Shown here: positions 16,941 through 63,543 of the stretch, in pieces
Layout of the letters: each line of letters starts with the position of its first letter
How positions within the stretch are numbered: the first letter of the stretch is position 1
Origin: Candidatus Nomurabacteria bacterium
GTDB lineage: Bacteria > Patescibacteriota > Minisyncoccia > Phycocordibacterales > UBA9973
Assembly: GCA_026395915.1 (NCBI GenBank)
Contig: JAPLXU010000011.1
Span: forward strand, 15,688-79,687
Length of the DNA stretch: 64,000 nt
Direction: 5' to 3'
Translations under genes and position numbers: made by a program
Notes under the pieces: model-generated
Told to the model about the DNA's origin: nothing
The model's database searches: none
The model's input: the letters and a program-made list of their open reading frames with translations, nothing else

Positions 16941-18284
16941 TTATTTCTTCTTCAGCCACTCGTCGTCTTGACGAACCAACAGTTTATTTTTATTTTCTTT
17001 ATCAAAGAGTATTGCTTCCACGACGCGTTCCATGCGCATGCCTTGCGAACCTTTCACGAGGACCAAGTCCCCTTTTTGTATAAAAGTTTTCATAAACTCG
17101 CCGGCTTGCGATGAATCTAGGAATTCAAAAAAGCTCGCCTCGTTCATTCCTGTTTCGAGCGCGCCTTCTTTGATGGCTTTCGCTCTCGGTCCGACAACGA
17201 CAAGCGCGTCGCATTTTTCTTTCGCCATCCTGCCGATATTTTTGTGGGCTTCCACGGTGTGCTTTCCTAATTCGAGCATGTCCCCTAGCACAGCAATTTT
17301 CCTTTCGCCAAATTTTACTTCTCTTAAAGTTTCAAGCGCAGATTCACATGCAAAAGGTGAAGAATTGTAAGTGTCATCAATAATCATTGAATCATTTATT
17401 CCTTTGAGGAGTCGCATCCGTCCGCTCGGAACATCGTAATTTTTCAAAGCATCTATCGCCTCCAACATATTCAATTTCAAAACCGAAGAGAGCGCGAGCG
17501 CTGCCATAGACGCATAGACATGATTCCTGCCAAAAACTCCTTCAATAATGACAGGCAAACTTTTACCATCTGAGTCCACTCTGAAAATAATTCCTGTCGG
17601 CTCGCTGGTAGTGGCATACAAAATATCTACGCCAGAACCCAAGATATCCGCGCCTTCTTTGAAGCCGTAAGTTATGATGCGAGATTTGCTGAGATTTTTC
17701 ATTTTCGACACATCTTCATCATCGGCGTTCAATATTAAAAAACCGCCCCCGCCTGCATCAGCTATGCTGGAAGCATTGCGGGCAGGTTTTTTTAAAGTTT
17801 TGATGAGTTTACTTTTTTCTTCAATCAAATGTTTACGCGAAGTAAAAAATTCTATATGAGCAGGAGTCTCGCCAATGGCCGTAATGATGACCACATCCGT
17901 CTTGAGCCAAGAAGCAGTCCGACGCATATCGCCCGGATGTCCCACACCGACTTCAAGAACCAGCCACTTTGGATATTGAGAAGATTTGAACGGATTTATA
18001 AAAAGCCAAAGACCTTTAAGAACATTCAAGAGCCAAATAAAAGGATTATTCCAGCCATTCGGAATACCTAAAATAGTAAGAGGCAAACCTATTTCGCTAT
18101 TGTAATTTTTGTTTGCCTTGCGGACGTGAGACACTTTTGAAAGAACCGCATAAACCGCGTCTTTTGTAGAAGTCTTGCCGACGCTTCCAGTGATAGCAAT
18201 GATTTTCGGCTTGTATCTGAAAAGCACCAGGCGCGATTCTATCTGTAAAATATAAGCTATTATTTTTTTGAAAATTGTTTTCAT
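16941..18284 (-). CDS. murF: UDP-N-acetylmuramoyl-tripeptide--D-alanyl-D-alanine ligase
   Basis: 447 aa. Mur ligase P-loop ITGSVGKTSTKD, central and C-terminal Mur domains. It contains the in-frame 38-nt PARNASSIADAGG element at 17749-17786. Confidence 0.9.
   Translation of the reverse strand: MKTIFKKIIAYILQIESRLVLFRYKPKIIAITGSVGKTSTKDAVYAVLSKVSHVRKANKNYNSEIGLPLTILGIPNGWNNPFIWLLNVLKGLWLFINPFKSSQYPKWLVLEVGVGHPGDMRRTASWLKTDVVIITAIGETPAHIEFFTSRKHLIEEKSKLIKTLKKPARNASSIADAGGGGFLILNADDEDVSKMKNLSKSRIITYGFKEGADILGSGVDILYATTSEPTGIIFRVDSDGKSLPVIIEGVFGRNHVYASMAALALSSVLKLNMLEAIDALKNYDVPSGRMRLLKGINDSMIIDDTYNSSPFACESALETLREVKFGERKIAVLGDMLELGKHTVEAHKNIGRMAKEKCDALVVVGPRAKAIKEGALETGMNEASFFEFLDSSQAGEFMKTFIQKGDLVLVKGSQGMRMERVVEAILFDKENKNKLLVRQDDEWLKKK
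17749..17786. repeat. In-frame palindromic element, copy 1 (in murF)
   Basis: ccgcctgcatcagctatgctggaagcattgcgggcagg. Read on the gene strand it encodes PARNASSIADAGG. Confidence 0.85.
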
Positions 18285-18336
18285 GACTTCATATTAAGAT
18301 TTCCTTGCAAATGATTTTGAGAAAAGTGGGTTCCTC

Positions 18337-18383
18337 AGATAGCGCCTAAAGCCCTATTTTAGATAGGGCTTTAGGCGCTATCT
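18337..18383. repeat. Perfect 21-bp stem / 5-nt loop hairpin at the ftsI 3' end, between ftsI and murF
   Basis: AGATAGCGCCTAAAGCCCTAT-tttag-ATAGGGCTTTAGGCGCTATCT. Confidence 0.75.
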
Positions 18384-20087
18384 ATCGGGCGGAACGTTAT
18401 AATAATTCAGCAAAAATTTTGTAATATCCAAAAACGGATCGCTCCAAGTGGTCGCGGCATATTGCACACCTTTCGGATTTACAGCATAAAGAAAAACTAT
18501 AAATTTCGGGTCATAAGCTGGAAAGTAACCGACAAAGGAATGCGTATGCCTGTCTTCATAATATCCTCCGTTTGCGCTGTCCGCAACTTGCGCCGTGCCA
18601 GTTTTTACTGCCACACTAAAATGGTCCAGCTTTCCCAATCCTCCTTTAATTGCTTTATCCATGACGCCGACGAGCATTCGCGTTATTTCTTCGCTAGTTT
18701 GCTTTGTTATTTTTGTCCGTGTAACTGGGTAAGATATTTTTTTGGAAATGCCAGTATCATATTTTATTTCTTCTACAACATGTGGCACTACAAGATTCCC
18801 ACCGTTACCAAGTGAAGCCAGCGCTCGAATCATTTCGATTGGAGTTAAAGCTATACCCTGGCCGAAAGAAGCGTTGGCATATTCGATTTCTCGCGGACTA
18901 TTCAAATTGGAAACCAACCCGCTCGTTTCATTCGGCAAATCAATGCCGGTTTTATCTTTGATACCATAAGCGAGGAGATAATCTTTTAATCTTGCTTTGC
19001 CTAATTGCTGTTCAACAAAGACCATTCCAGTATTAAGAGACTGATTGAGAACATCCTGCATCGTCGTGCCCGGACCCCTGCCTTTCTTATCAAAATTGAA
19101 TATCTCTTTTTTTTCAATCACGACAGAACCTTTGTCATCATATGTAGTATTCGCCGTCACAACTCCAGCATCCAAAGCTCCCGCCATCACCAATGGCTTC
19201 ACGACCGATCCGAATTCAAAAACATTTTCAACTAGTGGATTTGAAAAAACAGAATTATTTTTTTCCTGAGCAAACGTATTCGGATTGAAGTCCGGCTTGG
19301 CGCTCATTGCGTAGATAGAGCCGTTTTGCGGATTCATGATTATGCCTCCGATCGAATCGACTTGATATTTGTTTTTTACTTCTTCTAATTTTTTTTCCAA
19401 AAAATTCTGCACTGTCGGCTCGATCGTGGTGATCACATCCCCTTCTAATACTTCATGCTTAAACAAAGTTTTATTTATATTTGAGAAAACTTCCGCAAAA
19501 AAATTAACATAAGGATCATTATTTCTCAAAAGCTCGGAATTATACTGTCTCTCAAGTCCATAACGTCCTGCAAGCTCGTCACCTTTGTATCCGACAAAGC
19601 CGACAAGGTGTGAAGCAAGAGTTCCTCCGGGATAAAAACGCCATTTTTCTTTAAAAATATTCAAGCCCGTAATTTTAAGAGCAGAGACAGCATCAGCCTG
19701 TACTTTTGTGAGACGATCCGCCACTTCTTCATAAGGGTCATTAGTTTTCGACGCCTTCGCGATAAAATCGTCGTGATTCAAAGTTATTATCTTTGACAAT
19801 TTTTTATAAATAGATTCTTTATCGACAATTTTGCCAGGATCTATCGCCATCTTGAATCCTGAAGCTTGAGTCGCGGCAGCAATGAACTGTCCATCTTTGC
19901 TTTGAAAGAAAATTGCTCCGCGCTCGTAGATGTTGCTACCCGGCGTGGAATATTGCCTGTCAGCAGACTCCGAATAAACGTCGTTTTGCATAACTTGTAC
20001 AAAAAAGATCTTGGCTATAAGGACAAAAGAGAAAGATAGGACAAAAAAAAGAACGACCCTAGATCTAAAAATGAAACTATATGTCAT
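18378..20087 (-). CDS. ftsI: Peptidoglycan D,D-transpeptidase FtsI (PBP2/3 class)
   Basis: 569 aa. N-terminal TM, PBP dimerisation domain, transpeptidase motifs SVVKP, SxN-like and KTGTAQ. Confidence 0.85.
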   Translation of the reverse strand: MTYSFIFRSRVVLFFVLSFSFVLIAKIFFVQVMQNDVYSESADRQYSTPGSNIYERGAIFFQSKDGQFIAAATQASGFKMAIDPGKIVDKESIYKKLSKIITLNHDDFIAKASKTNDPYEEVADRLTKVQADAVSALKITGLNIFKEKWRFYPGGTLASHLVGFVGYKGDELAGRYGLERQYNSELLRNNDPYVNFFAEVFSNINKTLFKHEVLEGDVITTIEPTVQNFLEKKLEEVKNKYQVDSIGGIIMNPQNGSIYAMSAKPDFNPNTFAQEKNNSVFSNPLVENVFEFGSVVKPLVMAGALDAGVVTANTTYDDKGSVVIEKKEIFNFDKKGRGPGTTMQDVLNQSLNTGMVFVEQQLGKARLKDYLLAYGIKDKTGIDLPNETSGLVSNLNSPREIEYANASFGQGIALTPIEMIRALASLGNGGNLVVPHVVEEIKYDTGISKKISYPVTRTKITKQTSEEITRMLVGVMDKAIKGGLGKLDHFSVAVKTGTAQVADSANGGYYEDRHTHSFVGYFPAYDPKFIVFLYAVNPKGVQYAATTWSDPFLDITKFLLNYYNVPPDR

Positions 20088-20466
20088 TTTGAACTATTTT
20101 TATGTTGCCAAAAGGCACGCTCGTAGAATTAAAGCCGAGTGCCTTGCGATTCGCAAAAGTTGCCTTCACTTCCTTAAATCCGAGAGAATTTGAAAGAGTG
20201 AGATCAACATTATTAGACAAAGACAAATATGTAACCTCTAAATTTTGAACCTCATTTGAAAGAGAACGAGCTTGTGTTTCGAGACCTTGACGTTGCACGA
20301 TATTCTTAACCATGTTTCCTAAAAATATAATATAAAAAAGTGCAAGTGCTCCAAAAGACCAAAGAATAAAGTTGAAAATAAACTTTTCGATGTTGTTGTT
20401 CACAACACTGACGCCCTTCACATACGTATTAAATTTTAAGGTCATTTGTTTCATATTTTTTCTCAC
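20077..20466 (-). CDS. ftsL: Cell division protein FtsL-like
   Basis: 129 aa, single TM plus coiled-coil, sitting in the canonical rsmH-ftsL-ftsI position. Confidence 0.55.
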   Translation of the reverse strand: MRKNMKQMTLKFNTYVKGVSVVNNNIEKFIFNFILWSFGALALFYIIFLGNMVKNIVQRQGLETQARSLSNEVQNLEVTYLSLSNNVDLTLSNSLGFKEVKATFANRKALGFNSTSVPFGNIKIVQNDI

Positions 20467-20485
20467 CGCCTTCGACGGGATCCCG

Positions 20486-21385
20486 CTATAAGCGGGATAA
20501 AATCCTCAACTTCGCGCTTCTCGATCTCGGATTATTTTTAATTTCTTCTGCTTTCGCTATGATCGGTTTTTTGTTTACTAATTTTGCTAAATTTTCTTCG
20601 GCTAATTTTTTATAAAATCTTTTCACTATTCTGTCTTCCAAACTATGGAAAGAAATTACCGACATCCTCCCGCCAACTTTTAACGATTCGAATCCTTTCT
20701 CGAGTCCCTCGGAAAGCGCTCCTAATTCATCGTTGACCGCTATCCTTATCGCTTGAAAAGTTTTTGTGGCAAAGTGTATTTTCCATTTTCGAAACTTTGC
20801 CGGAATTGCGTCCTCTATTATTTTTACCAAGTCGAAAGTGGTTTCAATCTTTTTCTCTTTCCTAAAATCCACTATCGCTTTGGCTATCCTGCGAGCTTGC
20901 TTTTCCTCGCCGTAACCGTAAATAATATCTGCTAAACTCTTCTCCTCCCAGGTGTTCACGACATCTAGCGCCGTGACATCTTCTGGAAGAGGATTTTCTT
21001 TCATAGTCATGGAGAGTGGTTCATCTCTCATGAAAGAAAATCCTCGTCCAGAATTCTCTAATTGATCCGAACTCAAACCTAAATCAAAAATAATTCCGTC
21101 AACTTTTCCGACACCTTCCTTTCCCAAAACCTTATCTATATTCCTGAAATTTTCATTTGCGAAAGAAATGTCGCAATCCAAATCCTTGAACTTCTCTTTT
21201 GCTTTTTCGAAAGCACCTTGGTCTTGATCGAGGGCAATAATTTTCACATCCGGAAATCTTTTGCAAATTTCTAGACTGTGTCCCCCTCCGCCAAATGTGC
21301 AATCAATCACCAAAGATTTTGGTTTTAAATCGAGACCCTCTATTGTTTCTTGTAAAAGAACTGTCTTGTGTGCGCTTGTCATCAT
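20486..21385 (-). CDS. rsmH: 16S rRNA (cytosine1402-N4)-methyltransferase RsmH (MraW)
   Basis: 299 aa. HKTVLL, DCTFGGGGHS and ALDQD motifs. Confidence 0.95.
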   Translation of the reverse strand: MMTSAHKTVLLQETIEGLDLKPKSLVIDCTFGGGGHSLEICKRFPDVKIIALDQDQGAFEKAKEKFKDLDCDISFANENFRNIDKVLGKEGVGKVDGIIFDLGLSSDQLENSGRGFSFMRDEPLSMTMKENPLPEDVTALDVVNTWEEKSLADIIYGYGEEKQARRIAKAIVDFRKEKKIETTFDLVKIIEDAIPAKFRKWKIHFATKTFQAIRIAVNDELGALSEGLEKGFESLKVGGRMSVISFHSLEDRIVKRFYKKLAEENLAKLVNKKPIIAKAEEIKNNPRSRSAKLRILSRL

Positions 21386-21397
21386 ATTTTGGAAATT

Positions 21398-23635: not shown

Positions 23636-23674
23636 TTTTTTCCGCTAAAGGCGGATCCGCGCAAGGCGGAAATT

Positions 23675-24462: not shown

Positions 24463-24465
24463 ACT

Positions 24466-25991: not shown

Positions 25992-26017
25992 CCACTTGGA
26001 GGCTTTGCCTCCAAGTG
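25992..26017. repeat. REP-like hairpin, copy 1 (cacTTGGAGGCtttGCCTCCAAgtg)
   Basis: 9-bp stem, 3-nt loop, immediately upstream of the RAYT gene. Confidence 0.75.
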
Positions 26018-26030: not shown

Positions 26031-26678
26031 ATGTCATTAAGAAAAACCAATTTTGTAGAAGGTGAATATTATCATATCTACAATAGAGGCGTTGATAAGC
26101 GAGAAATTTTTTCCGATAAATTTGACTTAGAAAGATTCTTACAAAGTATGGAAAGTTTCAATACTAAGGATCCTATCGGGAGTTTATATGAAAATAGTTT
26201 TATAAAAAAGAAAGCACTTGGAGGCAAAGCCTCCAAATTGGTTAATTTTGTGGCTTATTGTTTGAACCCTAATCATTATCATTTTATTATTACTCCCCTC
26301 GTAGAAAAAGGAATCGAAAAATTCATGCAACGACTTGGAACAGGCTATACCATGTACTTCAATGAGAAAAATAAAAGATCTGGTTCGCTTTTTCAAGGGA
26401 AATTTAAAAGTAAACACTTAAATTCAAATGAATATTTACTTCAAGCAAGCTCCTATGTAAATTTAAACAACTATGATAAAAATGGGGTAATCAAAAAATC
26501 TTTAAACTCGTCAAGTTGGATTGAATATACTCAACCAACTAATAATGTTGAGTTTTGTGAAAAATCGATAGTGCTTGGTCAATTTGAATCCAAAAAAGAA
26601 TATGAAAAATTCGCACTGGAAACTTGGAGAAATACATGCGAAAGAAAAGAAGAAATAGAAAATCTTGAATTTATTTAA
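26031..26678 (+). CDS. IS200/IS605-like Y1 transposase, REP-associated tyrosine transposase (RAYT)-like
   Basis: 215 aa. YHIYNRGVDKREIF and NPNHYHFII (HuH) motifs. Associated with three REP-like hairpins, one of them inside its own CDS. Confidence 0.7.
   Translation: MSLRKTNFVEGEYYHIYNRGVDKREIFSDKFDLERFLQSMESFNTKDPIGSLYENSFIKKKALGGKASKLVNFVAYCLNPNHYHFIITPLVEKGIEKFMQRLGTGYTMYFNEKNKRSGSLFQGKFKSKHLNSNEYLLQASSYVNLNNYDKNGVIKKSLNSSSWIEYTQPTNNVEFCEKSIVLGQFESKKEYEKFALETWRNTCERKEEIENLEFI
26215..26238. repeat. REP-like hairpin, copy 2 (inverted orientation), in-frame inside the RAYT CDS
   Basis: cacTTGGAGGCaaaGCCTCCAAattg encodes ALGGKASKL. Confidence 0.7.
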
Positions 26679-27440: not shown

Positions 27441-27467
27441 TACTTGGAGGTCTTGCCTCCAAGTGGG
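27441..27467. repeat. REP-like hairpin, copy 3 (taCTTGGAGGtcttGCCTCCAAGtggg)
   Basis: Together with copy 1 it brackets the 1.45-kb RAYT-plus-membrane-gene insert between ftsA and ftsZ. Confidence 0.75.
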
Positions 27468-33059: not shown

Positions 33060-33182
33060 CGAAGTTAAAACTTTCATCTTTCGCAAGAACTCTTTCGCAA
33101 GAACGGTTCTTGCGAAAACTCAAGAACGGTTCTTGCGAAAACTGCGAAAACTTGCGAAAACTCTTGCGAAAACTTACTCCGT
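33060..33182. repeat. Tandem/inverted repeat array of TTGCGAAAACT units (bidirectional terminator region)
   Basis: tttcgcaagaac..ggttcttgcgaaaact x2, then gcgaaaact x3. It lies between the surface-protein stop and the tRNA-Ser 3' end. Confidence 0.7.
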
Positions 33183-36553: not shown

Positions 36554-37732
36554 ATGAAAATCCTTTCGATCGAAACGTCTTGCGACGATACAGGCATCAG
36601 TATAATGGAAGCAAAAAGAAGCGTCACAGGCGCTTCTTTTCGAGTGTTGGCAAATAATTCAAATTCGCAAATAAATGTCCATATCCCCTACGGAGGAGTC
36701 TATCCTGTGCTTGCTAAACGAGAACACAAAAAAAACTTACCGACCGTTCTCGAAGCAAGTCTGAAAGAAGCGAAGTTAGATAAAGAAAAGAAACCTGTAG
36801 ACGCTATAGCTGTCACTTATGGCCCGGGCTTGGAAATGTGCCTTTGGGAAGGTATCACTTTTGCAAAAGAATTAGCCGAAAAATGGAAAGTGCCTTTGAT
36901 ACCTGTGAATCACATGGAGGGACATATTTTTTCGGTATTTGGAAAAAATAAGGGAAAATTCTCAATACCAAAAATAAAATTTCCAGCTTTATCGCTTTTG
37001 GTTTCTGGTGGACACACGCAACTGGTGCTCATGAAAAAGTTGATGGATTACGAAATAATCGGTGAAACTTTAGACGACGCAGTCGGCGAAGCTTTTGATA
37101 AGGTCGCGAGAATGCTCGAACTCCCCTATCCCGGCGGACCGCAAATCTCAAAATTAGCAGAGGGGTGCAGAGTTAAAGAAAAACAATCTTTGCGGGGTGT
37201 CTCGCAGGCCGACGGGCCGAGAGGCAGCGCTGGGTCAGCAGACCCAGACAGCGACCCCGAAAAGATTAGTTTTTCTTTCACTCTGCCAAGACCCATGCTT
37301 CATAGCAAAGATTTCAATTTCTCTTATGCAGGATTGAAAACCGCGGTGCTTTATTTGATTCGCGATTTGCAAAAAAAAGATTCAAACATTTTACAAAATG
37401 ATAAAATAAAAAAAGCCATAGCATTGGAATTCGAAAACGCCGCAATTGAGTGTCTTGTCAAAAAGACACGAAAGGCCGTAGAAAAATATGGCATAAAAAC
37501 TCTCATCGTGGCTGGTGGGGTGGCATGCAATACGCATCTGCAAAGAGAAATGTCCGCCATAAACGAATCCGCCCCTCGAGGAAAAAAAATCAAAATCTTT
37601 TTTCCGCCGAAAGGTCTCTCGGGAGATAATTCAATAATGATAGGCATAGCAGGATACTTGAATTACATAAAAAATAAGAAAAAAGTCCCGAAACCAAACA
37701 GCATAAAAGCCGTCGGCAACCTGAGACTTTGA
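36554..37732 (+). CDS. tsaD: tRNA N6-adenosine threonylcarbamoyltransferase TsaD
   Basis: MKILSIETSCDDTG, HMEGH and GGVACN motifs. It carries a roughly 30-aa GC-rich in-frame insert (37193-37259). Confidence 0.9.
   Translation: MKILSIETSCDDTGISIMEAKRSVTGASFRVLANNSNSQINVHIPYGGVYPVLAKREHKKNLPTVLEASLKEAKLDKEKKPVDAIAVTYGPGLEMCLWEGITFAKELAEKWKVPLIPVNHMEGHIFSVFGKNKGKFSIPKIKFPALSLLVSGGHTQLVLMKKLMDYEIIGETLDDAVGEAFDKVARMLELPYPGGPQISKLAEGCRVKEKQSLRGVSQADGPRGSAGSADPDSDPEKISFSFTLPRPMLHSKDFNFSYAGLKTAVLYLIRDLQKKDSNILQNDKIKKAIALEFENAAIECLVKKTRKAVEKYGIKTLIVAGGVACNTHLQREMSAINESAPRGKKIKIFFPPKGLSGDNSIMIGIAGYLNYIKNKKKVPKPNSIKAVGNLRL
37193..37259. repeat. GC-rich multi-hairpin palindromic element inserted in-frame in tsaD
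   Basis: CGGGGT-[TCTCG..GGCC-gacg-GGCC..CGAGA]-[CTGGGTC-agca-GACCCAG]-ACCCCG. About 65% GC against a background of about 36%. Encodes SLRGVSQADGPRGSAGSADPDSDP. Confidence 0.75.
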
Positions 37733-38934: not shown

Positions 38935-41169
38935 ATGGATTCCAAACTGCCTGAGAAGCTACTTAAACCTTTTAACCCAAAAGAAACCGAAGAAAGAATA
39001 TACAAGCTATGGGAAGATAGCGGTTTTTTTGCGCCTGAAGTACACCCTACTTGGGTGGATGATTCTTCCTTAAACGAGAATTTTGGGAAACCTTTTACTT
39101 TGATAATGCCACCAACAAATGCCAACGGGTCTCTCCATGCTGGGCATGGCTTGGTCATGACTATCGAAGACATAATGGTGCGTTATAAGAGAATGCGAGG
39201 CTTCAAAACGCTTTGGCTCCCGGGATTGGATCATGCCGGTTTCGAGACGCAGGTGGTGTATGAAAAAAAACTGGAAAAAGAAGGACGAACGAGATTTGAA
39301 ATTGAACCCAAAAAACTGTATGAAGAAATTCTTGATTTCACTCTAACTAATTCAAAAAACATAAAATCTCAAGTTAGAAAAATGGGGGCGTCTTGCGATT
39401 GGTCTCGTGAGAAATTCACGTTGGATCCCGACATTGTGAAAATTGTTTATCAAACATTCAAAAAATTGTCCGACGACAATTTGGTGTACAGAGGAAACAG
39501 AATCGTGAGCTGGTGCTCGAAACATCAAACCTCTTTTTCTGATTTAGAAATACTAGACGAAGAACGAATAGATAATTTTTATTATTTGAAATATGGACCG
39601 TTTGTAATAGGCACTTCACGACCGGAAACAAAATTTGGCGACAAATACGTCGTGATGAATCCAAATGATGAAAGATATAAAGACTACAAAGATGGCCAAA
39701 AAATAAAGCTGGAATGGATAAATGGCCCGATAGAAGCCACTATCGTGAAGGACGAGGCAGTAGATATGGAATTTGGCACGGGCGTAATGACCATCACGCC
39801 TTGGCATGACACCGCGGACTTTGAAATCGCTGAAAGACACAAACTTGATAAAGAACAGATCATCGACGAGAATGGAAAATTGCTTCCTATCGCAGGAGAA
39901 TTTGCTGGACAGCATATCAAAAAAGCCAGAGCCTTGATCATAGAAAAACTGCAGAAAAAAGGTTTGGTGGAAAAAATTAATGAAAAATATAAACATGTCG
40001 TGAGGACATGTTACAAATGTGGGACAGTGATAGAACCGCAAATAAAAAATCAATGGTTTGTAAAAATGAAACCCTTAGCAGAGAAAGCTTTGGAAAAAAT
40101 AAATAACGGAGAAATAAAATACATCCCTGATCATTACAAAAAAGTTAGCATTCACTGGCTCTCGAATATTATGGATTGGAATATTTCCAGACAAATAGTC
40201 TGGGGCATACCGATACCGGCAAAAATTTGCGTAAAATGTGGAGCCGGCATGGTAGATCTAGATAATAAAATAAAAAAATGCGCTTCTTGTGGTGGTGAAG
40301 TCGCGCAAGACAAGGACACTTTTGATACTTGGTTCTCTTCCGGCCAATGGCCTTTTGCCACACTTGGCTATCCGGATGGAAAGGATTTTAAAACATTTTA
40401 TCCGACAGACGTCATGGAAACAGCCGGAGAAATTATATTTTTCTGGGTATCTAGAATGATAATGCTTGGCTTGTATGTTACCGGAGAAATTCCATTCAAA
40501 AATGTGTATCTGCATGGTTTGGTTTTAGACGCCAAGGGTCTCAAAATGAGCAAAAGCAAAGGAAACGTTATTGATCCGTTGATACTTACAGGAAAATATG
40601 GCACAGACGCATTTAGAATAGGTATGGTGATTGGCAACACTCCGGGCACTTCGCTGGCTCTTGCGGAAGAAAGGATCCGCGGTTATGGAAAATTTGCCAA
40701 CAAAATCTGGAATGCCACAAGATTCGTGCTTGATAATACAAAAGACTTCAACAATAGTAACACTGAAATAAAATATGATGAAGAAGATAAAAAATCAGAT
40801 GAAGAATTAAAAAAACTAGTAGAAGAAATAACAAAAGAGATGGACGAATATAAGTTCTACATCGTGGCGGAAAAAATCTACCATTATTTTTGGCATACTT
40901 TTGCGGACATCATTATTGAGCGATCAAAAAAGAAAATTCTAGAAAACAAAAATGCAGACTCGGCAAAAGCACTTGTTTATTCACAACTCGTCACCCTTCT
41001 CAAGGTTCTCCATCCTTTTATGCCTTTTGTTACGGAAGAAATTTGGCAAATATTATTACCCCGACGTAAAGTCGGGGAGCCGACTGAAATGTCGGCTTTA
41101 ATGGTTGAAAAATGGCCTGCCCGCAATGCTTCCAGCATAGCTGATGCAGGCGGGCCCGAATCCAAATGA
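38935..41169 (+). CDS. valS: Valine--tRNA ligase
   Basis: 744 aa. HAGHG (HIGH) and KMSKS present, CP1 editing domain, Zn-knuckle cysteines. No C-terminal coiled coil. Carries the PARNASSIADAGG element near its C-terminus. Confidence 0.95.
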   Translation: MDSKLPEKLLKPFNPKETEERIYKLWEDSGFFAPEVHPTWVDDSSLNENFGKPFTLIMPPTNANGSLHAGHGLVMTIEDIMVRYKRMRGFKTLWLPGLDHAGFETQVVYEKKLEKEGRTRFEIEPKKLYEEILDFTLTNSKNIKSQVRKMGASCDWSREKFTLDPDIVKIVYQTFKKLSDDNLVYRGNRIVSWCSKHQTSFSDLEILDEERIDNFYYLKYGPFVIGTSRPETKFGDKYVVMNPNDERYKDYKDGQKIKLEWINGPIEATIVKDEAVDMEFGTGVMTITPWHDTADFEIAERHKLDKEQIIDENGKLLPIAGEFAGQHIKKARALIIEKLQKKGLVEKINEKYKHVVRTCYKCGTVIEPQIKNQWFVKMKPLAEKALEKINNGEIKYIPDHYKKVSIHWLSNIMDWNISRQIVWGIPIPAKICVKCGAGMVDLDNKIKKCASCGGEVAQDKDTFDTWFSSGQWPFATLGYPDGKDFKTFYPTDVMETAGEIIFFWVSRMIMLGLYVTGEIPFKNVYLHGLVLDAKGLKMSKSKGNVIDPLILTGKYGTDAFRIGMVIGNTPGTSLALAEERIRGYGKFANKIWNATRFVLDNTKDFNNSNTEIKYDEEDKKSDEELKKLVEEITKEMDEYKFYIVAEKIYHYFWHTFADIIIERSKKKILENKNADSAKALVYSQLVTLLKVLHPFMPFVTEEIWQILLPRRKVGEPTEMSALMVEKWPARNASSIADAGGPESK
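41116..41153. repeat. In-frame palindromic element, copy 2 (in valS), identical 38/38 to copy 1
   Basis: cctgcccgcaatgcttccagcatagctgatgcaggcgg, encoding PARNASSIADAGG. Confidence 0.85.
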
Positions 41170-54966: not shown

Positions 54967-55239
54967 AAAACATCAAAAGAAAATACAAGTAGCGTGGGCG
55001 ATTGTCAGCGTTCTCATTATCATCAGCATGATCTTGCTCTATTCGCCGATTTTTAGACTGAAATAAAATAAATTAAGATTTTTTATTTTCTACCATCTTT
55101 TACATATGTTCGAGATAGTAGACATGAACTTTTTATTAAAAATGATAAAGCCCGCTTCTATGTTGAAAACGGGCCTTTACGATACGCGACAATTTTTTAT
55201 AGAGGAAGTCGCGACGATTCCTATGACGATAGCAAGAGA

Positions 55240-55845: not shown

Positions 55846-55848
55846 GAC

Positions 55849-56029: not shown

Positions 56030-57886
56030 CTATTTCTCCCCACTACGCATCATTTTCAGGAATACATCTTGCGGGATGTTTACTTTGCCTCTTTCTTTCA
56101 TTTTCTTCTTGCCCTTTTTTTGTTTTTCCCTGAGTTTCATCTTTCGAGTGATGTCACCTCCATACATGTGCGCAGTGACGTCTTTTTTCATGCCGGAAAG
56201 CGTACGGGAAGAAATAATTCTTCCAAAAGCTTTGCCTTGGATTTTCAGAGTAAACATTTGTCTTGGCAAAAGACTCTCGAGTTTCAAAACGGATTGTTCC
56301 GCCTCAATCTCCGCTCTTTTTTTGGAAACAACTTTAGAAAAAGCCGGCACAGGTTCGTCTGCAACAAGAACGTCTAATCGTGTGACATTCGCTTCGCGAT
56401 TTTCGGCTATTTCATAAGATATTGATCCATAACCAGACGTCGCGCTTTTTAGTTCATCAAAAAAATTACGCATAAGCTCGCGGAGAGGCATTCGAACAGA
56501 CAAAGATGATCTATTATCTCCAAAATTTTCCGTGTCCCCCACTTCCCCTTCGTGATCAAAAAGGATTTGCATAATATTGCCTAGATAATTCGATGGCGAG
56601 ATTATTTTCGCGTTCACCCATGGCTCAAAAACTGTCTTGATATTGCCATCGTCAGGAAAAAAATATGGAGAATAAACTTTTTCCCCGCCTGCAACGCTTT
56701 GCGTAGCATTGCGGGCAGGTCTTTTGTCATCATTGTAAAACACTTCATAGACGATAGAAGGCGTAGTTATGACCAAATTCAAATTAAATTCCCGCTTCAG
56801 TCTTTCTGTGATAATTTCTAAATGAAGCATGCCAAGAAAACCACAGCGGAATCCTCTGCCGAGAGATCCAGACGATTCTTCTTCAAAAGAAAAAGATGAA
56901 TCAGAAAGCTTTAATTTGCCCAAGGCTAGCTTGAGAAGAGCAAAATCGTCAGCATCTTCTGGAAAAACACTAGCCCAAACCACAGGCATAGGTTGCATAT
57001 ATCCTGAAAGCGCCTCTAAGGGAAATTCTGCTTTTGTGATAGTGTCTCCGACGGAAGCAATACCCGGCTTCTTGATGCCAGTGACAATATAGCCAATCTC
57101 TCCAGAAGAAAGAGACTCATGCGCATTTTCTTCAGGCGAAAATATGCCAACCTCCAAAGCGGTGAATTTTTCGTTTGACACAGCAAAAATCAAATCATCA
57201 CCTTTTTTCACATGACCATCAAGAATGCGTACAAAAACTATCACCCCACGATGATTTGAATACTTGAAATCAAAAACAAGAGCACGCAAAATATTCGGCT
57301 CACTTTCATTTTGAGAAGTTTTCGGCGCCGGGACACGTTTAATAATTTCTTGTAAAAGATTTTCCACTCCCTCTCCCGTCCTGCCAGACACTTGCAGAAT
57401 TTCTTCTTTTTTGCAATTTAAAAGTTTTACAACTTCGTCCTCTACTTCCGATATCCTTGCGAGTGGTGAATCAATTTTTGTGATAACCGGAATAATTTTT
57501 TTGATCATTTTTGAATCTTCTCCTTTAGCCATCGCAAGGGTAGTGAGAGTCTGCGCTTGGACTCCTTGAGTAGAATCAACCAATAAAATTGAACCTTCGA
57601 CAGCTTTCAAGGCGCGCGAAACTTCATAAGAAAAATCCACGTGACCCGGAGTATCAATAAGATTTAATATGTACTTTTCTTTATTGAAAGTATATTCCAT
57701 CCTAACAGGTTGCATTTTGATAGTGATCCCCCGTTCACGTTCGAGTTCCATTGAGTCGAGCACTTGGTCGCGCATCAAACGTTCTGGAACAGTGTGCGTA
57801 ATCTCAAGCATCCTGTCTGCCAAAGTGCTTTTGCCGTGGTCAATATGCGCAATTATTGAGAAATTTCTAATGTGTTTTAAATCCAT
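56030..57886 (-). CDS. lepA: Elongation factor 4 (LepA)
   Basis: 618 aa. G domain (AHIDHGKSTL, DTPGH, TKID) and LepA C-terminal domain. Carries a divergent 35-nt copy of the palindromic element (PARNATQSVAGG). Confidence 0.95.
   Translation of the reverse strand: MDLKHIRNFSIIAHIDHGKSTLADRMLEITHTVPERLMRDQVLDSMELERERGITIKMQPVRMEYTFNKEKYILNLIDTPGHVDFSYEVSRALKAVEGSILLVDSTQGVQAQTLTTLAMAKGEDSKMIKKIIPVITKIDSPLARISEVEDEVVKLLNCKKEEILQVSGRTGEGVENLLQEIIKRVPAPKTSQNESEPNILRALVFDFKYSNHRGVIVFVRILDGHVKKGDDLIFAVSNEKFTALEVGIFSPEENAHESLSSGEIGYIVTGIKKPGIASVGDTITKAEFPLEALSGYMQPMPVVWASVFPEDADDFALLKLALGKLKLSDSSFSFEEESSGSLGRGFRCGFLGMLHLEIITERLKREFNLNLVITTPSIVYEVFYNDDKRPARNATQSVAGGEKVYSPYFFPDDGNIKTVFEPWVNAKIISPSNYLGNIMQILFDHEGEVGDTENFGDNRSSLSVRMPLRELMRNFFDELKSATSGYGSISYEIAENREANVTRLDVLVADEPVPAFSKVVSKKRAEIEAEQSVLKLESLLPRQMFTLKIQGKAFGRIISSRTLSGMKKDVTAHMYGGDITRKMKLREKQKKGKKKMKERGKVNIPQDVFLKMMRSGEK
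56685..56719. repeat. In-frame palindromic element, copy 3 (in lepA, divergent centre, 3 nt shorter)
   Basis: ccgcctgca-ACGCtttGCGT-agcattgcgggcagg. The frame is preserved. Confidence 0.8.
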
Positions 57887-57889
57887 AAA

Positions 57890-59665
57890 TTAAATTACAT
57901 TTCTAAATCCTCCAGCCTGGAGATCCCAGAATTTTTTATACAATCCGCTTTCTTTTTTCACAAGCTCATCATGTATTCCATCTTCAATAATTTTCCCTTT
58001 TTCAATCACAATTATTCTATCCATTTCTCGGATAGTGGAGAGTCTATGAGCGATAACAATCGTCGTCTTTCCTCTGATAAGCGTGTGAAGCGCGTCTTGG
58101 ATTAAAGATTCGGAATGTGAATCGAGAGAACTCGTCGCCTCGTCTAAAACAAGAATTGGCGCGTCTTTGAGAATGGCTCTCGCGATAGCGACACGTTGGC
58201 GTTCACCACCTGAAAGTTTTACTCCCCTTTCGCCGACATAAGTTTCATAACCATTTGGCAGAGCGTCGATAAATTCGTCGCAGTGCGCGAGATGTGCCGC
58301 AATTAAAACTTCTTCGTCAGTCGCGTCGCGTTTGCCATAACGTATATTTTCTAAAAGAGAACGATGGAAAAGCACAGGATCTTGAGGCACAAAAGAAATT
58401 TTTTCTCGTAGATTTTTTTGAGAAACTTTAGAAATATCAATTCCATCAATCATGATTTTTCCTGAATTGAGATTGAACAATCTGAGAAGCAAACGAACAA
58501 AAGTGGTTTTCCCAGCTCCAGAAGAGCCGACAATCGCTATTTTTTGTCCAGCTGGAATTGTCAGAGAAAAATCATCCAGCACTTTTGAAGTATTATTTTC
58601 ATAAACATATTGCACGTTTTCAAACATAACTTCCCCTTTTATTTTATCCATCTCTTGCGCAGGATCATCTACAATTTCATACGGAGTGCTCAAGATGACA
58701 GCCATTTCTTCAGCGTCGGCAAAACTTTCATAGTAAGCGCGGACAATGCCACCAAAGCTCCACAGATTTTCAATCAAACGAATCAGATAATTTTGCAGGA
58801 GGACAATAACCGGCAAAGTTATCAAACCGAGTTTCCAATCGCCAATAACAACCCAGAAAATAATAAATTCGATAGCGAGCGAATAAAAACTTTCTATTGA
58901 ACCGAGTCCTTCCCAAAGATACCAATTAAAAACCATTTTCTTTTCTTGTTCTCGTATAACTCCACCGACGCGTTCTCTTTCATAATTCTGGCCAGTAAAT
59001 AATTGAATTGAAGAATGATTGCCGATTGAATCAGACAGGGCGCCTGTGGTTTTTGAATCAGCCTCGGCAACAATAACATCATATTTCAACTTGAGGCGGA
59101 TATATATAAAAGCTGTTAATAAAAACACTACACAAAAAACCGTCAGAATATAAGAATATTTCGGAGACAAACTATAAATCGCAATAACAGTGCCGACGCT
59201 ACGAACAATAAGAGGCAGACCATCAGCCATCATCCTGTCAGTGATTTTTTCAAACGCTCTTGCGTATCTGTTTATTCTCTGAGCTAGTGAACCGCTAAAA
59301 TTATTCACAAAAAATGAATGTGAATGCTCAATCATATATGAGAAGGCTTGCTTACGAAGACCAGCAATAGTTTCCGCTTCAAAGTACGCTAGAGAAAATC
59401 CTGAAATTCTGCGAAGTATCCAACGGAAAAAGTTTAAAAACAAAACGAGAAGAATGATGGATTGAGCCACTTTCACAACCGTAAAGTCGTTTGCAGTTAA
59501 AACATTCCAGAGTCTTAAATATTGAAGCGGAATAAAAACATCAAGCGCCGAACTAGCCACAGTTAGAATCACCACTGAAAAAAGAGAGACCTTGAATTGT
59601 CTCATTATCTGCCAGAAATATTTAAGCACCAAACCACGGTGCAAATTTGAATAATCTTTTTCCAT
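57890..59665 (-). CDS. ABC transporter, fused permease/ATP-binding (MsbA-like exporter)
   Basis: Start at internal MEKDYSNL. Six TM plus NBD (GSSGAGKTT, LSGGERQR, LVLDEATSSLD). Confidence 0.85.
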   Translation of the reverse strand: MEKDYSNLHRGLVLKYFWQIMRQFKVSLFSVVILTVASSALDVFIPLQYLRLWNVLTANDFTVVKVAQSIILLVLFLNFFRWILRRISGFSLAYFEAETIAGLRKQAFSYMIEHSHSFFVNNFSGSLAQRINRYARAFEKITDRMMADGLPLIVRSVGTVIAIYSLSPKYSYILTVFCVVFLLTAFIYIRLKLKYDVIVAEADSKTTGALSDSIGNHSSIQLFTGQNYERERVGGVIREQEKKMVFNWYLWEGLGSIESFYSLAIEFIIFWVVIGDWKLGLITLPVIVLLQNYLIRLIENLWSFGGIVRAYYESFADAEEMAVILSTPYEIVDDPAQEMDKIKGEVMFENVQYVYENNTSKVLDDFSLTIPAGQKIAIVGSSGAGKTTFVRLLLRLFNLNSGKIMIDGIDISKVSQKNLREKISFVPQDPVLFHRSLLENIRYGKRDATDEEVLIAAHLAHCDEFIDALPNGYETYVGERGVKLSGGERQRVAIARAILKDAPILVLDEATSSLDSHSESLIQDALHTLIRGKTTIVIAHRLSTIREMDRIIVIEKGKIIEDGIHDELVKKESGLYKKFWDLQAGGFRNVI

Positions 59666-59732
59666 ATAAGGACAGTCCTTAAGAGAGTTTCCCCAAGGAC
59701 TGTCCTTAATTCTAGCAGAAAAAACCTTTATT

Positions 59733-61412
59733 TCAAAGCTCTTCCTGAGACGGAGCAATAATCCCGCCACGCCAGAATTTGGTTTTGAGAGCTTTTGTAA
59801 CATCTTTCAACTCTTCATTTTTCAAAAGATATAGCACCAAAATAGCTGTCGCAATGCCGAGAATCCCGGAAATAAACCCTTGGAAAAACACTCCGAGAAA
59901 AGTAGTTGTGCCAAAAATCGGCGAGAAAATATTCAAACTGATGTAGGTGACAATACCCAAAAAAAATGACGCACCCAGACTTTGGAAAAAAGTCTTCATT
60001 ATGAAAGGTTCTTTTGGCATAAAATCTCTTTTCACAAAAATCCAATGTAAAATAAAATTTAAAACGGTGCCGACAGAATAAGCGAGCGGAAGCATCAACA
60101 CTTCCGTGCCAGAAATGCCGTTCACCTTGAGCAAGGACTCTATGAAAAAACGAAAGACTAAAACATTTTCAAAAAGATGGATAAAAACATAAGACAAAAT
60201 TATAATCAGAATAGAGCAGGAAAAATTGACTATGAGGGGACGTTTGGTGTTGCCGTTCGCATAATACGACCTCGACAAAAGAGCAATCATTCCTTGCGCA
60301 AGAACGGAAACGGAAAAGATCGCAAGTGATGCCGCCACTAGACGAGTATTGTCCCAGGAAAAAGATCCGGAACCGAGTATCACTCGCACAATCTGCGCGC
60401 GAAGCACGATAAAAAGAAAAGTAACCGGCAAAGACCAGAAAATTATCGCCCGAGCGGCGGATCGGAGATGATTTTTAAATTCGTCCATTTTTCCAAAAGA
60501 AATGGACTTCGCCAAGGTTGGAAAAGCGGCAACTGCGTAAGAAATGCCGATAATGTTGAGAGGTACTGATTGAAGATTAAAAGCAAAATTAAATACCGAG
60601 ATGGAACCGCTCTTTAAAAATGAAGCGAAAGCGATGATAGAAATGAGGGCAATATTGTTAAAAGCAAGACCCAAAGTTCTCGGAAGTGACGTGAAGGCAA
60701 CTCTTTTGATATCTTCAAAATTGATAGCGAAAGAAAATCTTGGAGTAAACCCACAGGACTTCGCTGAAATAGCTTGAATAAGAAAATGCATGAATGCGCC
60801 TAAGGCGACGCCGAGAGCTAGCCCATAAATTCCAAAAATCGGGTAGAAAAATACGACGCCGACAATGATGCCTAAATTATAAAAAATCGGACTTAAGGCG
60901 TAAATAAAAAATCGACGAAAAAGTTGAGTGACCGTACCAAAAAGATTTGAAAGTCCCATCAAGATCGGAGAAAGCAACATTATACGAGAAAGTGTTACTA
61001 GTCTCGCTTGGAAAAGTGGAGCAAAACCTGGAGCTATAAAAGGTACAAGAAGAGGGAGAAGAAAAAAAGCTATGAGAGAAATAAAAACTATCACCGCAAA
61101 AAAGACAGTGAAAACATCATTCAAATATTTTCGCGCTTCGTCCGTCACTTTGTCTCCATCCATTTTTTTTGTAATGAACGGAATTAGCACAGTAATGGAA
61201 GCAAGAGAAGCAATGCAAATAAAAATGAGATCAGGCACTCGGAAAGCTGCGTAATAGGCATCTAGAGACGGCGAAGGCCCGATGAAGTGAGCTATTGAGC
61301 GATCGCGAAAGAGAGCCAAGACTTGCGAAAGCAAAGTGAAAAAACCCAATAAAAGCGCCGCTTGATTGATATTTACAGATTCTTTACTGAAAAGTCTAAA
61401 AATTTTCTCCAT
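59733..61412 (-). CDS. murJ: Lipid II flippase MurJ (MviN)
   Basis: 559 aa, 14 TM, MurJ-like N-terminal region (AALLLGFFTLLSQVLALFRDR). Confidence 0.8.
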   Translation of the reverse strand: MEKIFRLFSKESVNINQAALLLGFFTLLSQVLALFRDRSIAHFIGPSPSLDAYYAAFRVPDLIFICIASLASITVLIPFITKKMDGDKVTDEARKYLNDVFTVFFAVIVFISLIAFFLLPLLVPFIAPGFAPLFQARLVTLSRIMLLSPILMGLSNLFGTVTQLFRRFFIYALSPIFYNLGIIVGVVFFYPIFGIYGLALGVALGAFMHFLIQAISAKSCGFTPRFSFAINFEDIKRVAFTSLPRTLGLAFNNIALISIIAFASFLKSGSISVFNFAFNLQSVPLNIIGISYAVAAFPTLAKSISFGKMDEFKNHLRSAARAIIFWSLPVTFLFIVLRAQIVRVILGSGSFSWDNTRLVAASLAIFSVSVLAQGMIALLSRSYYANGNTKRPLIVNFSCSILIIILSYVFIHLFENVLVFRFFIESLLKVNGISGTEVLMLPLAYSVGTVLNFILHWIFVKRDFMPKEPFIMKTFFQSLGASFFLGIVTYISLNIFSPIFGTTTFLGVFFQGFISGILGIATAILVLYLLKNEELKDVTKALKTKFWRGGIIAPSQEEL

Positions 61413-61422
61413 TTATCTTTCT

Positions 61423-63543
61423 TTATGGCTTTTTTGTGGTTGTTTTTGTAGATGGTTTCGTTGTTGCAGGAGTCAAAGTTTTTAGAGAATCAACATATTT
61501 TATCAAATTTGCATCAGTTGGAGTGATAGAAAGAGCTTCCTCTCCATAACTAAGGGCGTTTGCATTGTTGCCTTCGCTTTTTGCTATTTGAGAAAGGGTG
61601 ACTAGCGCGTCAACATAATCCGGCTTGAGAGCGAGAGCGGAATTCGCGTAATCTCTCGCCTCTTTGATTTTTCCGTCTAGAAACGACGCAGTCGCCATGG
61701 AAAGTTTGAGACCCGGATTGAGCGGATTCAAATTGGAAGCGCTTTGATAAGCGACGACGGCCTCGCTATAAGCATTCTTTACCCCGAGCGAACCCACTGC
61801 TTGATAGACCGAACCGAGCAATTGAAAATTTACATAATTTGACGGATCATATCCTGTCGCCAACTGCGCGCTTTTTACAGCTTGATCAAAACTTGCTTGC
61901 AAATCTGTCTTGTCGCTATCAGACAAGGCCGAACCTTTACCCACTATAGAATTTAATTTTCCAAGATACACCTGCGAATAAGTGCGTAGATATAAATCAC
62001 TCGTGAAAAGAGAAAGGGCTTTGCTTATGGAACTTTCGGCGACTGCTTCTGTTTGCGCTGACAACGCTTTTCCAAAATATGGAACTGAAGATACTCGCTC
62101 GAAATACTTAAACGCAAGCGCGATAGAAATAATTATCAGGAAAATAAGGAAAAGCATCGAAAAGAAACTTTTTCTGTGATCACTCAAGAACGATATGGAT
62201 ACTTCTCTATCTGAATTGGAGTTAACTAAACCAACAAACACTCCTGTGAAAGCGAGAGATAACAAAAACATCACGACTCCAGTCGAATAAAAGAAAGAGG
62301 AAACGAACAAATAAAGAGATAAAATGAAAAACGCCATCATCTCCCAATTCGTTCCTTTCTTGATACTCAAAAACACCGACTTAACACCAATAATCAAAAA
62401 CAGAATAAAAAAAGTAAGCCAAGCGAGAATGTTTAGAATTCCGGCTGTGGCAGTTAAAGTTGGTAGCAATCCTGAGCCAAAATCAAAAGAAGTGTCCCAA
62501 AATTGGGTGCCATTTATAGCCTGTGGCTTGTACATTGACCACGCTTCTTTGAATCTGTTTGGGCCAACTCCAAAAATAGGATGAGCAAAAAGCACTCCTT
62601 TTGTTATAGACATAGTCGATCCAAGAGAAGGGCTGACTTCGGAATTTGATATCTGCAAATAATTTGGAATAATGCTCCCGATAGAACTCCCCGACATAAA
62701 GAACAAGAGAGAAATCATCACAACAACAAAAGGAATTACTGGGAAATGCTTTCTCCCGCCTGCATCAGCTATGCTGAAAGCATTGCGGGCAGGCTCGTCC
62801 ATTTCCCCTCCACCTTTCTCATAAGTAGTCGAGGCCTTGTAGACAAAAATGACCAAGCTGGAGATTCCGAGAATTATCCAAACCAATGGAGAATTTACTG
62901 CCGCCGCTACCAATATTCCGAGCAAAATAAATATTTGAAGCAAGATTTTTTCCACTTTGGAAATAGGAAAAAATTCAATAACCAAAAGAAACATCAGACA
63001 AGAAAATCCGGCAAAAAGGCCGAGCGCGTTCCACGAACCCAAAATATTGGAAGTCTTATCAGCTAAAATTTTCATTGATGTAGCAACTGGGAAAAATACG
63101 TGAACGCTTTGGAAAATTAGAACCAGAACCGAAGACAATATCGCCCCGAGCAGAACGATCTTCGCCCGTTTAGGTGTCTTGAAGATAATAGAAGACATCA
63201 GCATCAAAACAAAAGCGGAAAAAATAAACCAAAAAGATCCTATGTCAAACATTGTGCCGAACCATGACACTTGCGAGTTGCCAGAAAAAAGAACAGAGAG
63301 AAGTAAAACCAAAACTATGCCGAAACCGGACACTAATAGCCATGATTTCGGAAAAATTATTTTGCCGTCAAAAAATCGAGCAATTGCCCAAAAAATAATA
63401 GAGAGAGTAAGTCCTAAAACCAAGAGCAGACCTTTGGAAGTCTCAATCGGAATGTTTGTAAAAGGCAAACAGAAGAAAGGCAACAAAACAACGACCAAGA
63501 ATAATGACAAGAACGAAAGCCTCTCAAATATATTTTTTTGCAT
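61423..63543 (-). CDS. O-antigen ligase (Wzy_C)-like polytopic membrane protein with C-terminal TPR repeats
   Basis: 706 aa. At least 10 TM, a GVGPNRF loop and C-terminal TPR-like repeats. Carries copy 4 of the palindromic element (PARNAFSIADAGG). Confidence 0.55.
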   Translation of the reverse strand: MQKNIFERLSFLSLFLVVVLLPFFCLPFTNIPIETSKGLLLVLGLTLSIIFWAIARFFDGKIIFPKSWLLVSGFGIVLVLLLSVLFSGNSQVSWFGTMFDIGSFWFIFSAFVLMLMSSIIFKTPKRAKIVLLGAILSSVLVLIFQSVHVFFPVATSMKILADKTSNILGSWNALGLFAGFSCLMFLLVIEFFPISKVEKILLQIFILLGILVAAAVNSPLVWIILGISSLVIFVYKASTTYEKGGGEMDEPARNAFSIADAGGRKHFPVIPFVVVMISLLFFMSGSSIGSIIPNYLQISNSEVSPSLGSTMSITKGVLFAHPIFGVGPNRFKEAWSMYKPQAINGTQFWDTSFDFGSGLLPTLTATAGILNILAWLTFFILFLIIGVKSVFLSIKKGTNWEMMAFFILSLYLFVSSFFYSTGVVMFLLSLAFTGVFVGLVNSNSDREVSISFLSDHRKSFFSMLFLIFLIIISIALAFKYFERVSSVPYFGKALSAQTEAVAESSISKALSLFTSDLYLRTYSQVYLGKLNSIVGKGSALSDSDKTDLQASFDQAVKSAQLATGYDPSNYVNFQLLGSVYQAVGSLGVKNAYSEAVVAYQSASNLNPLNPGLKLSMATASFLDGKIKEARDYANSALALKPDYVDALVTLSQIAKSEGNNANALSYGEEALSITPTDANLIKYVDSLKTLTPATTKPSTKTTTKKP
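62756..62793. repeat. In-frame palindromic element, copy 4 (1 nt different from copy 1)
   Basis: ccgcctgcatcagctatgctgaaagcattgcgggcagg. Confidence 0.85.

Follow-up and report, generated by a model that had tools for sequence, protein, structure and literature searches.

Small palindromic repeats are usually treated as lineage-specific and extragenic, and families of repetitive extragenic palindromes (REPs) are usually specific to a species or genus. Rickettsia palindromic elements (RPEs), reportedly described by Ogata et al. in 2000, are said to be palindromic selfish DNA lying in frame in housekeeping genes; elements of the RPE-1 type measure roughly 100-150 bp, and we know of no RPE outside Rickettsia. 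Imperfect DNA hairpins are also recognised in the 'peel and paste' transposition of IS200/IS605 elements, which have a tetranucleotide at the hairpin foot, two different ends and a tnpA gene of their own, excise seamlessly and make no target duplication. The mobile GC clusters and byp elements of fungal mitochondria are GC-rich hairpins of 30-50 nt in an AT-rich genome that occur also in coding sequence, and byp elements are bypassed by the ribosome. Intragenic REPs have been documented in Opitutus terrae and in Rickettsia conorii, whose RPE-4 and RPE-6 are CGTC REPs (PMC3733652), so the kind of element is already known. Here we describe four GC-rich, imperfectly palindromic sequences of 36 or 39 nt in a 64-kb window (the whole stretch that was analysed, 64,000 nucleotides of contig JAPLXU010000011.1 from Candidatus Nomurabacteria), which on balance are best explained as copies of a REP/RPE-like mobile hairpin that is not autonomous. 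The novelty lies in the family as such, in its coding-biased way of life with a strong preference for one frame, and in its being identical across genomes of the candidate phyla radiation (CPR) and of Planctomycetes-Verrucomicrobia-Chlamydiae (PVC) bacteria.

The initial annotation of the window had reported four copies of a palindromic repeat, and the repeat was recovered: matches to its 38-mer lie at 17749-17786 (plus strand), 41116-41153 (minus strand, identical) and 62756-62793 (one substitution), where shuffled sequence gives none, with a fourth, shorter relative bounded at 56684-56719. Read on the gene strand, the unit gains one G over that 38-mer and consists of CCTGCCCGCAATGC, 12 or 15 nt, and TGCAGGCGGG, so that copies A, B, C and D are 39, 39, 36 and 39 nt long. 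Copy A (17748-17786, minus strand; 39 nt, CCTGCCCGCAATGCTTCCAGCATAGCTGATGCAGGCGGG; 50 bits with the covariance model of the family) encodes PARNASSIADAGG as residues 167-179 of a MurF-like Mur ligase of 447 aa (16941-18284, minus strand; Pfam Mur_ligase_M and Mur_ligase_C, with MurF matches in the PDB). Copy B (41116-41154, plus strand; 39 nt) is the same sequence and supplies the same peptide, PARNASSIADAGG, as residues 728-740 of a class-I valyl-tRNA synthetase (ValS; 38935-41169, plus strand; Pfam tRNA-synt_1 and Anticodon_1), which has 744 aa including an extension. Copy C (56684-56719, minus strand; 36 nt, CCTGCCCGCAATGCTACGCAAAGCGTTGCAGGCGGG; 64 bits), which has the common 36-nt form of the family, encodes PARNATQSVAGG as residues 390-401 of the 618-aa LepA/EF4 (56030-57886, minus strand; assigned by Pfam and by a database protein 100% identical to it, named elongation factor 4 of Candidatus Nomurabacteria). 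Copy D (62755-62793, minus strand; 39 nt, one substitution relative to copy A) encodes PARNAFSIADAGG, residues 251-263 of a 706-aa multi-pass membrane protein with C-terminal TPR repeats (61423-63543, minus strand; Pfam, and syntenic homologues in loci L123 and L124), where it occupies a hydrophilic stretch directly before a hydrophobic one.

Each of the four copies begins on the first base of a host codon (phase 0), in sense orientation, and encodes a peptide of the form PARNA...AGG. The common frame and orientation that had been claimed for them therefore hold in 4/4 cases, as does the statement that the 3-nt length difference of the short copy keeps the host reading frame. The opposite-frame open reading frames (ORFs), which had been dismissed as mere translations of the repeat, are just that, as the antisense peptide PASAMLEALRAG reads directly from the reverse strand of the element. 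A search of the window with the family covariance model, filters off, returned no further or degenerate copies, and solo arms that might be ends of a larger transposon were absent besides the diverged full copies and one chance 11-mer. The latter, CCTGCCCGCAA at 5947-5957, matches the left arm but was rejected, as it codes the IAGR motif of an Obg-like GTPase and lacks a right arm.

Judged against their orthologues, the window copies are insertions and not ancestral motifs. Aligned with Thermus thermophilus EF4 (structure 5imq), LepA has 12 extra residues, the alignment gap falling exactly under PARNATQSVAGG, and the MurF-like protein has 13 extra residues relative to solved MurF structures; the insertions proposed for these two proteins are thus confirmed. 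In about 115 of the 120 LepA homologues closest to it (77-100% identity), NNGKK|EKIYSPYFF runs on uninterrupted, and at the DNA level the empty site of the relative L124, AAAAGA|GAGAAG, corresponds to AAAAGA|36 nt|GAAAAA in the window. Compared base by base, this filled/empty pair demonstrates a precise insertion, in which the target is not duplicated and its bases are all kept. The insert in the TPR protein is absent from all three syntenic relatives (L123, L124 and L125). The alternative that the same peptide sits ancestrally at the same positions across orthologues does not describe these proteins, nearly all of whose orthologues lack the insert.

The ValS copy differs from what had been described. 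The L124 orthologue is a protein of 714 aa whose stop codon TAG falls exactly where the window has TGG, directly before the element; L124 ends in GAAAAATAG followed by a short spacer, and the window reads GAAAAATGG, the element and then CCCGAATCCAAATGA. From this difference of stop and sense codon, the ValS copy is, on the sequence, translated by read-through as a 17-residue C-terminal extension and not as an internal loop insertion. The placement in a loop, as first proposed, was thus wrong for ValS. For LepA, an AlphaFold model (mean pLDDT 52, a confidence too low to use) weakly suggests a coil between strands at residues 385-401.

The LepA site is filled in 4/120 close homologues, and the filled ones are not each other's nearest relatives: three non-sister lineages carry the variants PARNATQSVAGG, PARHALQGDAGG and PARLDGTSRSGG, all three of which keep the hairpin. 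This pattern fits repeated insertion at a tolerated, favoured site and fits equally an old insertion followed by precise losses and structure-preserving drift. A second insert, PSTSSGQA (CCTTCGACAAGTTCAGGACAAGCT), recurs in frame and in scattered lineages within this LepA loop, where it precedes the PARNA site by three codons; its carriers are the LepA of L125 (5124-6980) and the proteins P0002, P0003, P0020, P0021, P0026, P0070, P0074, P0087, P0090 and P0094. This one loop has thus repeatedly served as a landing or tolerance site, for two element families or more.

The element folds into a long imperfect hairpin, as had been anticipated, with z-scores down to -4.7 as RNA (copy C) and -3.9 as DNA. 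The commonest forms in the family are three 36-mers with the cores GCTTCGCATAGCGATGC, GCTACGCATAGCGTTGC and GCTGCGCATAGCGCTGC, which differ by one compensated base pair. Among 49 distinct sequences this inner-stem pair is U-A in 24, A-U in 17, G-C in 3 and G-U in 3; the alignment was fitted to a covariance model, and the raw sequences plainly show the same pattern. In longer variants the inner stem-loop is swapped for a longer hairpin, to a total of up to 52 nt. The two arms differ from each other by transitions, which makes the element strand-asymmetric, and read from the sequence and its folds the sense strand has two G-U wobbles and one C-A mismatch. It terminates in CCTG and GGG on one strand, and in CCC and CAGG on the opposite one. 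The flanks are unrelated between copies and hold no conserved sequence, although a bias toward A (-3 to -1) and toward G or C (+1) is present, and in CPR genomes the sequence 5' of the insertion is often rich in A and that 3' of it often starts with G. A known RNA family was ruled out with Rfam: across the whole window only tRNAs reach gathering thresholds, and around copy C no match with E <= 10 comes near its family's gathering score, the sole CRISPR-family match having E = 2.7.

Beyond the window, the family was sought as CCTGCCCGCAATGC-N(6-30)-TGCAGGCGGG with exact arms (24 specified bases) in a collection of one genome per species totalling 596 Gb, where about 0.1 chance matches are expected. 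The copies in other genomes that had been predicted are there: the matches listed comprise at least 119 loci in roughly 100 assemblies (counted by accession prefix), and the figures given below for 122 copies, their coding or intergenic position and their neighbours cover these matches. All carriers are uncultured, known as metagenome-assembled genomes (MAGs) or other metagenome sequence. Half of the copies (61/122) lie inside ORFs and half (61/122) between them, by simple ORF calls. The coding copies are all multiples of 3 nt in length (61/61), versus 42/61 of the intergenic ones (p = 7e-7). The 36-mer is open in four of its six frames, as can be read from the sequence, yet 45/61 coding copies use the sense frame that reads PARNAxxSxAGG (p = 2e-15), the remaining 16 being divided between the LPAM... 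frame (7), the third sense phase (2) and antisense (7). Sense orientation is found in 54/61 coding copies; intergenic copies are co-oriented with the upstream gene in a ratio of only 33:18, and the strong bias within genes is then mostly as expected from selection on the encoded peptide.

The host genes are unrelated to one another and often essential. They include translation genes (the Ile-, Val-, Glu-, Ala- and Arg-tRNA synthetases, ribosomal proteins S1 and S9, and the CCA-adding enzyme), genes of DNA metabolism (GyrA, RecG, UvrC and ribonucleotide reductase), cell-wall genes (a penicillin-binding protein and Mur ligases), and GAPDH and GrpE. The coding copies are probably transcribed and translated within the host protein, to judge from their frame and length. 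A copy inside a gene would survive only with the reading frame kept, a cause suggested by the observed pattern, and P-A-R-N-A-x-x-S-x-A-G-G may be a small, hydrophilic linker, started by Pro and ended by Gly-Gly, that is tolerated in loops and terminal tails.

Most of the listed loci are from many classes of Patescibacteria (Nomura-, Davies-, Levy-, Roizman-, Collier-, Magasanik-, Falkow-, Moran- and Berkelbacteria), and 19 assemblies among the matches listed are Verrucomicrobia, Kiritimatiellia or Lentisphaerae with 50-61% GC. The element is accordingly not restricted to this AT-rich reduced genome, being present in about 100 MAGs of Patescibacteria and PVC bacteria. Identical 36-mers occur in loci labelled Patescibacteria (32-45% GC) and in loci labelled PVC (54-61% GC), and all three of the commonest 36-mers are present in CPR and PVC loci alike. 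The PVC identity of one of these loci (L030) was confirmed by the homologues of its host MurC, which carry the names Verrucomicrobiota, Kiritimatiellae and Lentisphaerae; this MurC has the insert in its N-terminal tail, as does 1 of about 120 PVC MurC proteins in all, and relatives 84-93% identical are without it. In the same way the insert in the ValS of L084 is found in 1/120 Daviesbacteria-like ValS proteins. Comparison with such close relatives demonstrates recent lineage-specific gains in two distant groups. Further apparent occurrences in Gammaproteobacteria, Bdellovibrionales and Saccharibacteria were rejected as resting on unreliable labels of third-party-annotated (NCBI TPA_asm) assemblies, some of which are mislabelled CPR genomes: the ValS of L084, the one locus labelled Gammaproteobacteria that was tested, is 85% identical to that of Candidatus Daviesbacteria, and L009, labelled Saccharibacteria (TPA_asm), is syntenic with Nomurabacteria loci. 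On these grounds the TPA_asm labels were not relied on, and two groups are claimed, CPR and PVC.

Two viral contigs in IMG/VR carry copies, and one of these codes an SU10-type major capsid protein adjoining the element. With the same 36-mers in Patescibacteria, PVC bacteria and viral contigs, horizontal spread of the element appears to have taken place, as far as shared sequence can tell. Patescibacteria are considered to be epibionts of other bacteria. No match to the element came from isolate-derived plasmid and phage collections. An autonomous element bounded by two copies was considered for the viral locus L120 and rejected, as its inverted pair of copies encloses no recognisable transposase. 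A full-text search of literature that does not cover all journals found no paper containing the DNA or peptide strings of the element, and a search by topic returned only general papers on REPs, RPEs and MITEs (miniature transposable elements with inverted repeats).

Several observations argue that these copies moved. In the window, three copies out of four are only 0-1 nt apart, and the orthologous TPR (L123, L124 and L125) and ValS (L124) sites are empty. Syntenic genomes differ in the gene that is hit, the copy lying in the tail of S9 in L001, L009 and L068 and in the N-terminal tail of GrpE in L087. Nested copies are found in two Lentisphaerae loci (L014 and L075). From the strand-asymmetric hairpin, the 4-nt 5' tail CCTG, the seamless insertion or absence, the nested copies and the head-to-tail arrays we infer that the element would be mobilised as single-stranded hairpin DNA, cut and joined by a trans-acting HUH-type enzyme, by analogy with IS200/IS605 and with REPs and their REP-associated tyrosine transposases (RAYTs). 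A bolder proposal is that the 36-nt hairpin is in itself a complete mobile element, active at present and passing between Patescibacteria and PVC bacteria, perhaps carried by phages, that its sequence is moulded to give an innocuous linker peptide in one sense frame, which would let it colonise essential genes, and that it is mobilised by a widely shared enzyme or by general host functions that act on hairpin DNA; we consider this unlikely, and if true the hairpin would rank with the smallest known mobile elements and would be a natural tracer of DNA passing between CPR and other bacteria.

Two further arrangements of the element were observed. In L079 (1952-2444 and beyond, with N-masked stretches) spacerless head-to-tail arrays lie in an ORF of 602 residues as tandem PARNATHNVAGG repeats, in which neighbouring pairs have private substitutions in common (CCTACC...). 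In the Verrucomicrobia MAG KR13_Ju.mb.40 (L029, L048 and L116) the 36-nt element sits within a repeat of about 190 nt with terminal inverted repeats GAGTCAGTTTCAAAAGTCC...GGACTTTTGAAACTGACTC; this MITE-like unit is present in at least 3 copies, with the hairpin as a passenger.

Set beside the described systems, the element comes closest to intragenic REPs and to RPEs. Intragenic REPs of the GTAG/CGTC type (Di Nocera et al. 2013, PMC3733652) are likewise GC-rich imperfect palindromes of 20-40 nt with a short single-stranded tail, dispersed mostly near gene ends, though some lie within known genes and there contribute a short peptide, and their stems show G-T pairing that suggests transcription. 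Like the element, CGTC REPs are without a dedicated transposase (PMC3733652). The repeated 20-40 nt palindrome of REP/RAYT systems is thus present, but the GTAG or CGTC tag by which REPs are defined (PMC3733652) is replaced by CCTG, and no flanking RAYT was found, either in the window or in 80 loci around homologues of a window transposase described below. REPs lie predominantly outside genes, in doublets or clusters; here about half of the copies are coding, and they are mostly singletons and not head-to-head dimers, with doublets, nested copies and arrays rare. Identical 36-mers common to Patescibacteria and PVC bacteria are a further difference from REPs.

With RPEs the element shares the character of palindromic selfish DNA found in frame in unrelated housekeeping genes of a reduced genome, giving a tolerated surface peptide, and the insertions in unrelated ORFs look, from the sequence, compatible with a functional protein. 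The RPE-like behaviour proposed at first is thereby supported, with intragenic REPs as a second precedent (PMC3733652). At 36-39 nt and with Patescibacteria and PVC bacteria as hosts, however, the element has neither the 100-150 bp length nor the restriction to Rickettsia, and being far shorter it is not a member of the RPE family; it is set apart by length and hosts, not by sequence comparison. IS200/IS605 elements resemble it in the imperfect hairpin, the tetranucleotide at the foot and insertion without target duplication, and differ in that our element consists of one hairpin and nothing else, and no tnpA was found associated with it. GC clusters and byp elements are similarly short GC-rich hairpins dispersed in an AT-rich genome, in a different genetic system; the strict multiple-of-3 length and open frame of our element argue for ordinary translation, unlike the bypass of byp. 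The arms could be read as the imperfect 14-nt inverted repeats of a MITE, but there is no duplication and the flanks hold no common repeat. A CRISPR repeat was also rejected, as nearly all loci are single-copy without spaced arrays and the rare tandems have flanks in common.

The observations that weigh against a mobile hairpin concern its conservation and the search for an enzyme that would move it. The arms are near-invariant across very distant hosts (32-61% GC) and degenerate copies are scarce, which could mean functional selection, although arm conservation is partly built in, since the scan of the collection required exact arms, and copies found by the covariance model alone show scattered arm substitutions. 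The LepA and S9 sites are occupied in non-sister lineages with the hairpin kept by compensatory changes, and these variants fit structural selection in situ as well as they fit repeated insertion or precise loss. Such data would suit a hairpin that is a functional nucleic-acid motif under selection, an mRNA or single-stranded DNA structure bound by a conserved factor or tuning translation, mRNA stability or termination, whose spread was the recruitment of a useful module. The conserved strand asymmetry with its wobbles and mismatch, the compensatory inner-stem changes, also between copies at one orthologous site, the predominance of sense copies in genes and the mild co-orientation outside them agree with this account. 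We nevertheless give it only a modest chance, because the host genes and positions are unrelated, close orthologues (85-93% identity) manage without the element, there are also antisense copies, copies in another frame, nested and tandem copies and copies within a MITE, no Rfam family matches, and the sense bias drops markedly outside genes, as selection acting mainly on the peptide would have it. That the peptide PARNAxxSxAGG is itself the selected unit, as a tag for recognition, cleavage or modification, with the DNA similarity secondary, would explain the one frame of 45/61 coding copies and the constant ends P-A-R-N-A and A-G-G; with half of the copies intergenic (19 of them with a length not divisible by 3), long ORFs that use other frames or the antisense strand, nucleotide conservation that includes third codon positions and tracks base-pairing, and sites as arbitrary as the tails of S9, GrpE and MurC and the loops of LepA, it is extremely improbable. 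Every carrier is a metagenome assembly and the isolate-derived collections hold no match, as an assembly or sequencing artefact would have it; the copies come from many independent projects and assemblers, lie inside long contigs, show compensatory variants and preserve frame strictly. Descent from an ancestral protein motif is contradicted by the absence of the element from nearly all orthologues, and we regard artefact or ancestral motif as almost certainly wrong.

As to an enzyme, all-against-all clustering of neighbouring ORFs gave no recurrent neighbour family, the largest cluster covering 7 of the at least 119 loci, and the recurrent clusters that were checked are housekeeping genes (ribosomal protein S9 and GrpE). 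The window does contain a Y1_Tnp gene (26031-26678, plus strand; 29.5 bits against the Pfam cut-off of 23) with the HUH motif NHYHF and a Y-x-x-x-N motif, whose best NCBIfam match is REP_Tyr_transpos, below the model cut-off. That this transposase mobilises the hairpin as the REP partner of a RAYT is suggested by these domain matches, by homologues 0.6-2 kb from the element in 4 of the at least 119 loci, and by the 5' tetranucleotide of the hairpin and its seamless insertion, which resemble REP biology (PMC3733652). The window gene is flanked, however, by a palindrome other than the element, CACTTGGAGGC-NNN-GCCTCCAAGTG, whose three copies cluster around it at 25993-26017 (14 nt upstream of the start), 26215-26239 (inside the gene, reading ALGGKASKL) and 27441-27465 (beyond the neighbouring gene), and in other CPR loci each homologue has on its flanks a distinct hairpin of its own, specific to its lineage. 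In 80 metagenome loci around Y1 homologues, 461 kb in all, no copy of the element was found at E <= 0.001. The element lacks the GTAG/CGTC tags, and no Y1-family homologue was seen in the PVC-labelled loci among the matches listed. The hairpins of their own and the 80 copy-free loci leave the link between Y1 gene and element unsupported and largely refuted, and we hold it to be very unlikely. At 33102-33151 of the window a tandem AACGGTTCTTGCGAAAAC resembles the TGCGYAAGAACCGTTC hairpin that flanks the Y1 gene of L058, and may be a remnant of another hairpin family.

Against the usual picture of small palindromic repeats, the mobile hairpin that we favour presents one 36-mer identical in two very distant groups, at 32-61% GC, with half of its copies in genes, many of them essential. 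Its inserts of 12-13 residues occur in ribosomal proteins, tRNA synthetases and cell-wall enzymes, and work on CPR protein alignments, phylogenies and structure predictions should take account of them. Identical copies in common could trace the flow of DNA among CPR, PVC bacteria and phages, and the element is small enough for direct biochemical tests of mobilisation.

Two other features were noticed in the window. Within a TsaD-like gene (36554-37732, plus strand) positions 37190-37258 form a very GC-rich, structured in-frame insert of 69 nt, LRGVSQADGPRGSAGSADPDSDP; its surroundings (37187-37263, 77 nt) fold at about -40 kcal/mol, and the insert, which the L124 orthologue lacks, adds a third kind to the in-frame GC-rich inserts of this genome. 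An AT-rich palindromic repeat of about 47 nt, TCTACTATATCGAACATATGTTAAAGATAGTAGA, lies at 4038-4084, 4682-4728 and 55078-55124, in or near intergenic regions, one of them adjoining a gene with a PaaX/Cas2-like domain (4094-4663), and might be an operator or promoter element.

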